From positions 1 to 48,212 of the forward strand of contig JAGGXC010000015.1 in assembly GCA_021163265.1 (NCBI GenBank): 48,212 nucleotides of DNA, given 5' to 3'. The translations under genes and the position numbers were made by a program. The stretch comes from a bacterium. GTDB taxonomy: Bacteria > Patescibacteriota > Minisyncoccia > Minisyncoccales > JAGGXC01. The notes under the pieces were generated by a model that was not told the DNA's origin, searched no databases, and saw only the letters and a list, made by a program, of their open reading frames with translations. Below are positions 16,589-20,694 of this stretch, piece after piece. Numbering within the stretch: position 1 is the stretch's first letter; each line of letters starts with the position of its first letter.

Positions 16589-19500
16589 ATGAATCCAAAG
16601 AACTCTTTTTTAACTCTTTCTTTCAAAAAGATTGAGACATTATTACTGCTTGTCGTTGCAGGAATCTTTGTTTTTGCAATACAGGCCAACAGCGAGTATA
16701 GGATGATAAGTCCTGATATAGAACTTCAGACTATTTCTTATCCTCAAAAGATCTCTGTCTCTTTGAAAGAAAACAGCAAGGAGACAATTGAAGGAGAGGC
16801 AGAAATTACAGATCCTTATTTAATTCGTTTTTCTGGCAATGAGTTTTTAGAAAGGAATATATCTTTTCAAACAGGCTTCAATGGTTTGGATATATCAATA
16901 GAAACAGATAAACCGCTATTCAAAAAAGAAAATTTTTATCAGAGACAGTCTTTTTCTGAAAAGTTTAGAAAGTTTGTTGGAGGTAAAACACTTCCTCAAT
17001 TTCGATTAATAAAAAGCATTACTTCAAGAGAAGATGGCTTTGGAGAAATTATTCATTTCGCCGGTCTCGATTTTAATATCTCTTATGTGAGAGAAGAAAA
17101 ATTAAAAGAGAAAGATATAAAACAGATTGTTTCTCTAAAAAACAAAACTTCCGAACCCTTGCTTGTTTCTCTTGTTTTTAAAAACAAGATAAAAGCAGAT
17201 AAAGTATATTGGGGAGGTAGACGTCATTTTTTTTCTCCTCTGCCAGAAAAAGTCTCTCCGTTTTCATTGGTTGAATTTTATGGAGATGACAAAACTCATA
17301 CTATTGGCTATGATATTTCAGATATTTCTTCCAGCAAACATCCTCAAATGTGGATTCAAAGAGAGGGTTCAGATAATCTTTTAATACTTTCGGTCGATAT
17401 TTATCTTCCTCCTCAATCGTCAGATCAATTCTCTGGTGTTTACAAACTTACTGCTCTTCCTTTAGCGGCTGACGAAGATTCAGGATTTGTTGTAGAAAGA
17501 GGTGCTACTTGGAACAGTTATTACAATCCAATGACAAAAAAATTTATATATAAAGTAACCACATCTCCTTTAAATTACAGAGATAAAAAAGGAGAGTGGA
17601 AACCTATTAATCTTTCAATCAAAGAATTGGAATCGCCGTATTGTTTTGGCGTTTCTTGTTATAATTACGGGCTGGAAGAAAATTACTTCAAAACATATTT
17701 CAATGCCAAAGGAGAAGTTCTTTCTTTCAACCCCGACGGTTATTGGATGAAAACAACAATTGTGGATCTGGATATATACGATCCTTTAATAAAAGGATTT
17801 TATTCTATATCGAAAGGCACTTTCAATTTTTCTCCTCGTATTTCAAAATCCCATTTTAGTTATCCTGGCATTTATAAATCTTTGGAAGGCAAAAGTCACC
17901 GTCTGAATTACGACATTAATTCTTCTTCTGTTATTGAGGAATACATTATAGAAACAAGAGATTCTCTTCCTTCTTTTGAAGAATTTTCAGAAGAGCAGAT
18001 TAATAATATGTATCTTGGCGTAGTTTCTGCTTTTGAAATAGATGATAGTCTTCAAATAGAATTAGTTTATAAACATAGAAGCAAAGAAATCTGGAATAGA
18101 AACTTGGGTGAGCGTAGAGATATAGAATCTATTAATTTTTATTCGCAAGATGGCAATCTTCAGTTTAGAATCGAAGAAGCCTTTGCTACTGACGAAAATG
18201 GAGAGCGTATACCTGTTTCTTATATGATTGATTACAATAAAGGAAAATATATTATTCGCAAAATGGTTCCTTTATCCTGGCTTCTTGATTCAAAGAGAGC
18301 TTATCCAATAGTTATTGATCCAACAGCAAGTTATTATGCTGGTTCTGGTGATGGATATGTTGCGCATTCAGCTTCTACTTGGAGTGCTGTTCATGATGCT
18401 GGCACAGGTACTCAAGCAAATTCTACAGCTTCAAGTTATAACGATGGTTTATCAGTGGGGTATAACGGAATCAATCGTACTTATAATATAGCTCGTTCTT
18501 TTTTTCCTTTTGATACTTCTGGTCTTCCTGATGATTCTGTAGTGGTTTCCGCTTCTTTATATGTTTATGGAAGATATAGCGAAATTCCGGTTCCTCCCGG
18601 TTCCGACGTTTCTGCTCAAAAAGGTACACAAGGAACTAGTTTAACTACTGATGACTATGATGCTTTTTCTGGATCAACTTATGGAACAACGAGTTGGAGT
18701 AATGACGGTTACAATACAATTAGCTTTAATTCTACTGGTAGATCCGATATTAATAAAACCGGTACTACTTATATTTGTTGTCGTGAGTACTCACATGATT
18801 ATTTAAATGTATCGCCAGGGTCCCATATTTATCACAATGGCGTTTGTTATTCAGAATACACAGGGACTAGTAATGATCCTTATCTATATATAACCTATGA
18901 CAATCCACCTCAGGTAGGTACAATCACTCTCAATGGAGGCAACCCCATTACTTTAATTGAAAATTCAACTACTTCAGTAGTAGCGACCGCTACTGTGTCA
19001 GACGCTGATGGGTATTCAGATATTGGGAAGTATGGCGGTAAGTTATATCGTTCAGGTGTAGGATCAAGCTGTTCTTGGAATGATAATAATTGTTATAAGG
19101 GTTCTTGTTCTTTAAGTTCTTGTGCAGGAACAAGTTGTATTTTGACTTGCAATTTTAAGCTTTGGTTTCATGCTGATCCTACTGATTCCGGAACCTGGGC
19201 ATCTGAGTGGTGGGAAGTAAAATTAGATGTACTGGATAGTTATAATATTGAAGATTCAGGCACTACCTCCCAGGAACTTAATTCTCTGCAGGCATTAAGC
19301 GTTTCGCCATCGAGCTTCGATTATGGCACTCTTAATCCCGGAGAAAATACAGGTACTTTAAACCAGACTACCACTATTACTAATACAGGCAATATTGCCA
19401 TAGATGCTTATATTTACGGTACAGATTTAACAAGCGGTTCAGATAATATTCCTATAAGCTATCAAGAATATTCCACTTCTTCAGGAGTAAGTTATGGGTC

Positions 19501-19672
19501 TGGTGTTGATGCTACTAGTTCTTCAAGTAACCTGGTTGAACTTGATCTTTCCAAACCCACTTCCCATCCTTCTAATTCAACTGATGATGTTTATTGGGGA
19601 TTAGAGATTCCTATACCTCAGCCCGCAGGAAATTATTCAGGAACTATTACTTTTTCGGCTACAAATGATTGA
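16589..19672 (+). CDS. Large secreted multidomain adhesin-like protein (about 1027 aa)
   Basis: ATG 16589 gives a signal peptide and removes the overlap; WLLDSKRAYPIVIDPT motif, DNRLRE-like domain, C-terminal 6-Cys module paralogous to the next gene. Confidence 0.8.
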   Translation: MNPKNSFLTLSFKKIETLLLLVVAGIFVFAIQANSEYRMISPDIELQTISYPQKISVSLKENSKETIEGEAEITDPYLIRFSGNEFLERNISFQTGFNGLDISIETDKPLFKKENFYQRQSFSEKFRKFVGGKTLPQFRLIKSITSREDGFGEIIHFAGLDFNISYVREEKLKEKDIKQIVSLKNKTSEPLLVSLVFKNKIKADKVYWGGRRHFFSPLPEKVSPFSLVEFYGDDKTHTIGYDISDISSSKHPQMWIQREGSDNLLILSVDIYLPPQSSDQFSGVYKLTALPLAADEDSGFVVERGATWNSYYNPMTKKFIYKVTTSPLNYRDKKGEWKPINLSIKELESPYCFGVSCYNYGLEENYFKTYFNAKGEVLSFNPDGYWMKTTIVDLDIYDPLIKGFYSISKGTFNFSPRISKSHFSYPGIYKSLEGKSHRLNYDINSSSVIEEYIIETRDSLPSFEEFSEEQINNMYLGVVSAFEIDDSLQIELVYKHRSKEIWNRNLGERRDIESINFYSQDGNLQFRIEEAFATDENGERIPVSYMIDYNKGKYIIRKMVPLSWLLDSKRAYPIVIDPTASYYAGSGDGYVAHSASTWSAVHDAGTGTQANSTASSYNDGLSVGYNGINRTYNIARSFFPFDTSGLPDDSVVVSASLYVYGRYSEIPVPPGSDVSAQKGTQGTSLTTDDYDAFSGSTYGTTSWSNDGYNTISFNSTGRSDINKTGTTYICCREYSHDYLNVSPGSHIYHNGVCYSEYTGTSNDPYLYITYDNPPQVGTITLNGGNPITLIENSTTSVVATATVSDADGYSDIGKYGGKLYRSGVGSSCSWNDNNCYKGSCSLSSCAGTSCILTCNFKLWFHADPTDSGTWASEWWEVKLDVLDSYNIEDSGTTSQELNSLQALSVSPSSFDYGTLNPGENTGTLNQTTTITNTGNIAIDAYIYGTDLTSGSDNIPISYQEYSTSSGVSYGSGVDATSSSSNLVELDLSKPTSHPSNSTDDVYWGLEIPIPQPAGNYSGTITFSATND

Positions 19673-19676
19673 GGAG

Positions 19677-19726
19677 TTTTCCACAATATATTATATTCTG
19701 CAGAAATTCAAAAAATATGTTATAAT
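19677..19726 (+). promoter_or_regulatory. Putative internal promoter for the 302-aa gene with a DnaA-box-like 9-mer
   Basis: TTTTCCACA 19677-19685, palindrome TTCTGCAGAA 19696-19705, consensus extended -10 TGtTATAAT 19718-19726. Confidence 0.6.
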
Positions 19727-19785
19727 AAATAAAAATATTAATTTAATATAGGAAATAAACTAATAACACAGAAACTGCAGAAATT

Positions 19786-20694
19786 ATGTCTCCTCAAACA
19801 AAAATTTCTCTTTCTTGGTTGGTGGTATTTTTGATGTATGGTGTAATAGCTATAGGGGCTACAATTATTTTGAAAGATGTGTTAGCAGATACAATTCAGT
19901 CATCTGTTACTGTAGGTAATGAACCTCCTACAGTAGGAACAGTAATTCTGAATGGAGGTAATGATATTGTACTTGCAGAAAACACTACTGTTACCGTGAT
20001 AGGCACTACTACCGTAACTGACGGTAATGGTTATAACGATATTACAGCAGTTACTTCTACGCTTTATCTTAACAATACCACCTGTTCTAGCGGTCTGGCT
20101 GATCCCAATTGGTGTTATTATATAAGCAGTTGTGCTACAAGTAACTGTTCAGGAAGCAGTTGTGATGTAACCTGTTCAGCAAATGTATGGTTTATTGCAG
20201 AACCTACATCGCCAACCACTTCTTATCCATCCGCTGATTGGCAGATGGATATTACCGTAGTAGACAGCGGTAACAACACTGATACCGGAACAACAAGTCA
20301 AGAATTATTGACTCTTTATGCTTTGGATGTAGATGGTTCGATTAGTTATGGAACTATTTATCCTGGAGGGACAAGCACAGAGCAGTTAACTCATGCCACT
20401 AATACTGGGAATTATCAAATAGATGTAGCGCTATCAGGTGTAGATATGGATGATGGATCGGGACATACGATTGCCGTGGGTCAGCAGAAATATTCGAGTT
20501 CTTCGAATATGGGAGATTGGGTAGGTACTGCGTTAACTACCACAGCTTCTCCATATAATCTTGATTTACCGAAACCAACTGCTACTACTTCAAACAGCTA
20601 CGATGATCTTTACTGGATGATTAAGATTCCTGATCCCCAATACCCTGGTACTTACACTGGAACTAATACAATAAGCGCTATAGACGCAATATAA
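19786..20694 (+). CDS. Secreted Thr/Ser-rich beta protein, candidate fibre shaft subunit
   Basis: Signal peptide ending VLA, six Cys, C-terminal YWMIKIP..PGTYTGTNTISA strand reminiscent of WxL/fimbrial subunits. Confidence 0.75.
   Translation: MSPQTKISLSWLVVFLMYGVIAIGATIILKDVLADTIQSSVTVGNEPPTVGTVILNGGNDIVLAENTTVTVIGTTTVTDGNGYNDITAVTSTLYLNNTTCSSGLADPNWCYYISSCATSNCSGSSCDVTCSANVWFIAEPTSPTTSYPSADWQMDITVVDSGNNTDTGTTSQELLTLYALDVDGSISYGTIYPGGTSTEQLTHATNTGNYQIDVALSGVDMDDGSGHTIAVGQQKYSSSSNMGDWVGTALTTTASPYNLDLPKPTATTSNSYDDLYWMIKIPDPQYPGTYTGTNTISAIDAI

Follow-up and report, generated by a model that had tools for sequence, protein, structure and literature searches.

The window analyzed here is a stretch of 48,212 nucleotides (nt) of contig JAGGXC010000015.1 (assembly GCA_021163265.1, forward strand, positions 1 to 48,212), from an ultra-small bacterium of the Patescibacteriota, or candidate phyla radiation (CPR), whose genome is represented by 674 kb that are 94% complete. 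Four genes in this window, which we call A, B, C and D and which lie in that order on one strand, probably encode a donor-strand pilus that is assembled without an usher and under the guidance of a chaperone, with A as the tip, B as the shaft, C as the chaperone and D as the terminator (Table 1); its polymerization is something we infer. A and B are adjacent secreted proteins that share a module at their C-termini, a unit of two beta-sandwich domains (D1 and D2) that is likely a pilus subunit. A preliminary description of this DNA had recognized the module as a six-cysteine unit duplicated between the two genes; the four-gene operon extends beyond the region which that description covered.

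The paralogy of the two copies proved to be real. In the pairwise alignment that the preliminary description had proposed as a check, the module of A, which is the last 256 residues of its open reading frame (ORF), matched residues 47–300 of B with 45% identity over 260 columns (161 bits, E 8e-53), and the local score of 513 was far above those obtained with 300 shuffles of B (mean 52, maximum 84). The six cysteines paired one to one (57/64/69/74/79/83 of the module in A with 100/110/116/121/126/130 of B), and every conserved block quoted earlier was found in the alignment. A blastn comparison of the DNA of the two module stretches gave no match, and these were the only two copies found in a search of the genome. 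The view that the module has no named family was also borne out, as Pfam gave nothing above any cut-off (the best match being DUF4402, E 0.034, in the A copy), NCBIfam gave no family match for B, and PDB sequence searches with the module gave nothing significant. GH123-N and DUF4402 were rejected as the family of the module because their matches were below cut-off, and we read them as shared C-terminal strand motifs.

Searches with B identified 71 homologues at E ≤0.001, and a 67-row profile matched 3,058 cluster representatives (clusters at 50% identity) at E ≤0.001, 1,312 of them at E ≤1e-30. The duplication is, therefore, no two-gene oddity: its family counts about 3,000 clusters, and it lies in a four-gene operon. 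A profile search for the fused cargo, also proposed at the outset, showed that most of the matches listed have a C-terminal module on varied cargo. Among the 150 matches listed, the module ended at most 15 residues from the C-terminus in 136, which comprised 38 short proteins and 98 cargo fusions of up to 6,513 aa; of the remaining 14, several had a domain inserted in the module or a second D2. Pfam named cargo in 16 of the 55 fusions scanned (LamG in 7, DUF2341 in 7, Ig_Rha78A_N in 4, and also Kelch, beta-helix and fn3), and the other 39 had no Pfam-named cargo. That the module sits at the C-terminus, mostly fused to cargo, supports its assignment as the subunit domain of a pilus.

In the AlphaFold2 model of B (predicted local distance difference test score, pLDDT, 91), an N-terminal helix leads into a segment that is free up to about residue 45, and two beta domains follow. 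D1 is predicted to be an Ig domain that is complete and held together by three disulfides, as it aligned to whole Ig domains (ICAM-1, Z 9.4, root-mean-square deviation (rmsd) 2.2, 98 aligned; residues 44–175 of the model against Fab light-chain constant domains, Z 7.8), with residues 165–172 forming its last strand and aligning to the end of those domains. The disulfide pairs are probably C100–C110, C116–C130 and C121–C126, based on the invariance of the cysteines and, for C116–C130, on covariation as well (z 7.2). D2 is predicted to be a pilin-type domain without its last strand. It aligned with FimA (3sqb_B, residues 15–159; Z 8.1, rmsd 3.0, 118 aligned) and with a Csu pilin (7zl4, residues 15–155; Z 7.9, rmsd 2.8, 112 aligned), from the region after the donor strand through the last strand; we take both ranges to be the acceptor domains minus the donor strand. 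This agreement with known acceptor domains supports the pilus reading. Among the Foldseek matches listed for B, the highest query template modelling (TM) scores were those to CfaE-CfaB (0.40) and CfaB-CfaB (0.37).

The free segment of B contains the candidate donor strand, which is preceded directly by a near-invariant alanine (A34, conserved in 64/67 homologues); V41 (64/67), V43 (61/67) and N45 (65/67) are similarly conserved. A donor matrix built from residues 35–45 was applied to 141 representatives outside its build set, of which 40 were put aside because no signal peptide was detectable (one of these scored). A donor score of at least 8 bits was reached by 19 of the 30 short members, by 5 of the 7 multi-Ig members of ~570 aa and by 3 of the 64 cargo-fused members; among background ORFs whose N-terminus is hydrophobic, 6 of 127 reached it. 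Two of the three scoring cargo fusions seem to be pilins that were misclassified. In the window, B and D scored 14.3 and 12.7 bits, respectively, versus -4.3 for A and -2.2 for C. The prevalence of the donor strand in short and multi-Ig members and its rarity in cargo fusions are what would be expected of pilins and tips, and support those roles here. The suggestion that the two copies had become functionally specialized gains support in the same way, since B has a candidate donor strand and A has cargo instead.

Gene C is predicted to encode a membrane-tethered chaperone. Its model (pLDDT 89) had two beta domains and a C-terminal helix, and its Foldseek matches included WxLIP 9i1y (second, E 3e-9) and WxLIP-WxL 9i25 (third, E 5e-9), with FimC (E 1.4e-7), CfaA (E 3.5e-7) and YadV lower, among ASH-domain proteins. 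No match to PF06030 or PF11797 was found in C or elsewhere in the genome. The profile of C did match a chaperone at locus L072 that itself passes the PF06030 cut-off (E 7e-10), as well as the chaperone of a Pam-type operon, L079, beside ATP synthase (E 1e-12). In a sample of 401 genomes of the phylum, all 13 with a C match under E 1e-20 carried the module, and 12 of the 14 other genomes with strong module matches had such a C; the two without were fragmented, with the module match at a contig edge. The module gene directly adjoined C in 30 of 40 loci, and in the other 10, several of which are at contig ends, it was not adjacent. The fold of C, together with the coincidence of module and chaperone across genomes, supports the assignment of C and of the system. 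The more distant homologues of C (loci L071–L090) point to no fewer than three further types of pilin in CPR: two-domain pilins of the Pam type (L079), pilins of ~210 aa with PF06030/LysM chaperones (L072), and pilins of ~215–240 aa with a partial D2 profile match (L085/L090; E 1e-6 over 44 columns, with a 3-sequence profile).

The product of gene D matched PF00041 (E 9e-13) in two stretches and had a C-terminal hydrophobicity of 3.1, and the module search gave no match in it. No LPxTG motif was seen in D by eye, no sortase search having been made. Donor-like strands were common in the genes that follow the chaperone, which supports their reading as terminators: the non-pilin gene after the chaperone had a donor score of at least 6 bits in 15 of 21 loci (in one of them the rounded score was 6.0) compared to 9 of 116 in the background. 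Most of the scoring proteins terminate in a membrane helix or carry a dockerin-like tail; of all 21, eight end in a strong membrane helix and seven in a dockerin-like tail, and Pfam dockerin was above cut-off in three of six dockerin-tailed proteins scanned. Such a tail replaces the membrane helix in the putative terminators of L044, L055, L056, L058, L061, L064, L067 and L070. Cohesin-like genes were seen downstream in L058, L064 and L067, with Pfam cohesin above cut-off in L064 only. Lastly, the usher family PF00577 had 0 matches in the genome, with a positive E. coli control, and this supports assembly without an usher.

Table 1. Predicted features of the four-gene pilus locus, in positions of the window.
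Feature	Position	Strand	Description
Gene A, 1027 aa	16589..19672	+	Predicted tip adhesin; hydrophobic N-terminus, cargo of ~770 aa, C-terminal module; no donor strand, no membrane anchor
CBM96/DNRLRE-like domain (likely carbohydrate-binding)	18419..18898	+	Directly before the module in A; end boundary inferred
Module copy in A	18902..19669	+	D1 (six Cys) and acceptor-like D2 (from about 19289)
Gene B, 302 aa	19786..20694	+	Predicted major pilin; signal peptide, donor strand, D1, D2
Candidate N-terminal donor strand of B	19888..19920	+	Residues 35–45; outside any strand in the monomer model
D1 of B	19921..20313	+	Residues 46–176; predicted complete Ig-like domain with all six Cys
D2 of B	20314..20691	+	Residues 177–302; predicted pilin-like acceptor domain, last strand G-x-Y-x-G
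Gene C, 306 aa	20708..21628	+	Predicted membrane-anchored two-domain chaperone; C-terminal helix 21524–21592
Gene D, 537 aa	21663..23276	+	Predicted terminator/anchor; donor-like strand 21804–21836, two FN3 matches, C-terminal membrane helix, no module

Two pilus types that were first described in 2026 have the same four-role layout (10.64898/2026.10.17.759780; PMC13278184), which lends further support to our assignments. In the Elr/WxL pilus of Enterococcus faecalis, ElrA is the tip, ElrC/D are the pilins, ElrE is the chaperone (DUF916-DUF3324) and ElrB is the terminator (10.64898/2026.10.17.759780), while the Pam pilus of Ca. Mycosynbacter amalyticus comprises PamA/B/E, PamT, PamC/D and PamR (PMC13278184). 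Both fibers were solved by cryo-electron microscopy, and the tip and terminator roles were modelled in those studies (10.64898/2026.10.17.759780; PMC13278184). The kind of system is already known from Pam and Elr; what is new here is the architecture and family of the pilin, not the principle. No description of this pilin family was found in the literature searched, which excluded most subscription papers and the supplements of both preprints.

As in Elr, the predicted tip has variable cargo, a C-terminal acceptor and no donor strand, a membrane-anchored two-domain chaperone is encoded next to the pilin (the fold of C matching that of WxLIP in 9i1y/9i25), the terminator has a donor strand and no acceptor, and there is no usher; the presence of the N-terminal strand on pilin and terminator and its absence from the tip is likewise shared, here as a pattern in the sequences. 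Unlike Elr, this genome lacks matches to PF13731, PF06030 and PF11797, in B a further six-cysteine Ig domain separates the donor strand from the acceptor, the donor consensus has no Phe at P14, and the base protein ends in a membrane helix (a dockerin in some relatives) with no LPxTG-type signal seen. The host also differs, being a CPR bacterium, whereas the Elr/WxL system was reported as confined to Bacillota in a paper that is silent on Patescibacteria/CPR (10.64898/2026.10.17.759780). The likeness to WxL and fimbrial subunits noted in the preliminary description held for fold and gene context, but the module is not a member of the WxL family by Pfam: PF13731 had 0 matches at E ≤10 in the genome, with a positive Lactococcus control, and none among the 67 homologues.

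With Pam, the system has in common a CPR host, a two-domain pilin with disulfides and a PapD-like chaperone anchored at its C-terminus (the distant profile match to L079), and D resembles PamR as an FN3 terminator with an N-terminal strand and a C-terminal membrane helix, a likeness of architecture. It differs in that the donor strand is predicted to be N-terminal and not the interdomain linker, the tip is a large cargo fusion and not a single domain, there is one chaperone, and the locus is between rodA and rpoB and not beside ATP synthase. Comparison by hhalign with 11 Pam-type pilins gave E 0.035 for D2 (probability 1.5%, last 32 columns only) and E 0.56 for D1; these 11 had been picked by architecture, with the M. 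amalyticus sequences not among them and the ATP-synthase context confirmed for L079 only. The Pam structures 25PZ/25QA did not turn up in the fold searches. Chaperone-usher pili (FimA/FimH/FimC, CfaB/CfaE/CfaA and Csu) share with our system the chaperone fold and a tip made of an adhesin plus a pilin domain, and their acceptor-domain fold resembles that predicted for D2, at scores tied with non-pilin folds. Our system differs from them in its lack of an usher, its membrane-tethered chaperone and its two-domain shaft subunit.

Several observations weigh against the pilus reading. The D2 scores to pilins were middling (Z ~8) and tied with those to GH123 N-domains (Z 8.7–8.9) and the CEP192 ASH domain (Z 8.4), so that the fold alone is no proof of a pilin, and the top Foldseek ranks for B were generic two-Ig proteins. 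The open groove in D2 was deduced from the ranges of the alignments. For C, whose fold was assigned by Foldseek, the top match was Vpr, many ASH-domain proteins were listed among the chaperones, and TM-scores were only ~0.3. Eleven of the 30 short members fell below the 8-bit donor threshold, and signal peptides were called by a hydrophobicity rule and not by SignalP. In a covariation analysis (164 rows, effective number of sequences 130), no link between donor strand and D2 rose above other pairs; the best pairs of the donor strand had z up to 4.6, mostly with D1, and V41–I281 reached only 3.2. In addition, many of the loci are close kin and thus not independent of one another.

Based on these assignments, we propose that, after Sec export, a hairpin of C (about residues 124–131) would fill the groove of D2. 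A, with a groove but no donor strand, would start the fiber and display as cargo what is probably a glycan-binding domain. Further B subunits would then join by each putting residues 35–45 into D2 of the preceding subunit, which would yield a linear D1–D2 chain, until D, with a donor strand but no groove, stopped growth and kept the fiber in the membrane. The likely job of such a thin surface fiber is attachment of the episymbiont to host cells or surfaces, and the system bears on how CPR bacteria find and hold their hosts. If the reading is correct, a large unannotated family would form the shaft of an adhesion fiber in CPR and the plug of its tip, and the C-terminal module would be a marker with which candidate host-binding adhesins could be pulled from metagenomes. 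The operon is small enough for reconstitution in E. coli.

The alternative that fares best, and which we consider improbable, is a small non-polymeric surface complex in which C or D would tether A and B at the membrane in one or two steps and the module would be a sorting or display tag. The occurrence of the module as a C-terminal tag on very varied large proteins and the distance of some modules from a chaperone in the 10 loci mentioned above are both compatible with it. However, B has no cargo to display, and its candidate donor strand and acceptor-like domain would permit head-to-tail repeats; furthermore, the analogous Elr and Pam subunits make long fibers (10.64898/2026.10.17.759780; PMC13278184). 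Somewhat less probable again is a fiber with the geometry of Pam, whose pilins are also two-domain CPR pilins with disulfides and use the linker as donor (PMC13278184). The exchanged strand would then be the D1–D2 linker (residues 165–176) and not the N-terminal strand, and the linker block is indeed conserved in A and B. Yet the model places residues 165–172 within D1 as its last strand and leaves residues 35–45 free, the tip-type copy keeps the linker strand whereas the terminator D has the N-terminal strand only, and D1 has no significant profile match to the 11 Pam-type pilins compared. A generic Ig stalk or a cell-wall- or glycan-binding unit, with B as an S-layer-like protein or soluble adhesin, the neighbors as co-located surface genes and no strand exchange, is very unlikely, for although the best structural scores were to generic Ig, FN3 and glycoside-hydrolase accessory domains and Ser and Thr make up 28% of the module, it leaves unexplained both the tight pairing with one chaperone-fold family and why pilin- and anchor-type proteins share an N-terminal strand that cargo fusions lack.

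The named relatives of the proteins are Patescibacteria (Nealsonbacteria, Spechtbacteria, Parcubacteria, Uhrbacteria, Liptonbacteria, Adlerbacteria and Dojkabacteria); several of the records carry the title Saccharibacteria, and one carries Planctomycetota. Its spread is patchy, as the module profile matched 17 of the 401 genomes of the phylum, two of them marginally, 5 of 6 other genomes of the family and 1 of 34 other genomes of the order. Each of those five family genomes has at least two module places, with one B-type gene and further copies. A quick, unrooted tree of 59 copies, made with no clade test and with at least one row probably mislabelled (L058, a 5'-truncated ORF), grouped the A copy with tip-type copies of two relatives (Shimodaira–Hasegawa-like approximate likelihood ratio test (SH-aLRT) 99) and B with four B orthologues (SH-aLRT 100). 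The A/B split is therefore older than these genomes, in agreement with the old duplication proposed in the preliminary description; a recent duplication was rejected on the basis of the tree and the blastn result. For other lineages, tip and pilin copies from a single genome or family were neighbors in the tree, suggesting that the module has been joined to new cargo repeatedly.

We raise, as a tentative possibility short of our preferred conclusions, that these operons constitute a third sequence-distinct class of usher-less donor-strand pili that extends across several lineages of CPR, with about 3,000 clusters at 50% identity, and perhaps into DPANN archaea. In this class, the disulfide-stapled module would act as a universal plug to which cargo for host recognition, up to 6,500 aa long, is attached, and cargo could also be inserted in the module of strand-bearing subunits, which would place adhesins along the shaft. 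If so, the class would link WxL pili, reported as Bacillota-only, with Pam and chaperone-usher pili, and its members would make up a list of proteins that may determine host specificity in uncultured episymbionts.

Whole domains inserted in D1 or D2, or a second D2, were seen in P0073, P0074, P0079, P0089, P0102, P0138, P0186, P0211, L051 and L054. Some of these insert-bearing copies are N-terminal-module proteins that keep the terminal strand, and therefore could be adhesins built into the shaft. A pilin type of ~550–600 aa is common, with a donor strand, extra N-terminal domains (often with a weak second D1 match) and then the module (L031, L032, L035, L039, L042, L044, L047, L056, L058, L060, L066 and L068).

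The module family is perhaps shared with DPANN archaea. Among the Atlas neighbors of 19786–20691 (score 0.97, unannotated), one cluster was 62% Archaea, most commonly Nanobdellota, and in another the commonest named phylum was Aenigmatarchaeota. Look-ups of 20 proteins gave a single named member, from Patescibacteria, and a metagenome locus (L070) had the same operon beside a ychF-like gene, with no evident archaeal marker.

The domain directly before the module in A is likely CBM96-like, which we offer as a lead, not an assignment. NCBIfam DNRLRE matched residues 611–716 of A (E 2.9e-4) with 20.9 bits, below its cut-off of 34, and in the Atlas residues 300–770 had a score of 0.96 to clusters that were 54–59% PF24517 CBM96. 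The start of gene A was set at 16589 over the first ATG at 16379 because the latter would overlap the upstream gene by 200 nt; orthologues begin to align at residue ~17 of the 16589 product.

The flanking genes rodA and rpoB, the latter after D, were named from their translations. A scan of the locus for promoters and terminators gave no signal above chance level. The two genes upstream of A (14354–16578) are both kept in place in L052 and L053: one encodes an HTH_17/excisionase-like protein with a membrane segment, and the other a secreted protein with a weak match to the N-domain of the Bdellovibrio MAT fiber (E 3e-4, below cut-off). Further upstream, ~5 kb from A, positions 16–11047 hold a type IV pilus gene cluster (pilM-, pilB-, pilT- and pilC-like genes, pilins and a prepilin peptidase, named by eye from translations), and the cell may therefore have two pilus systems.

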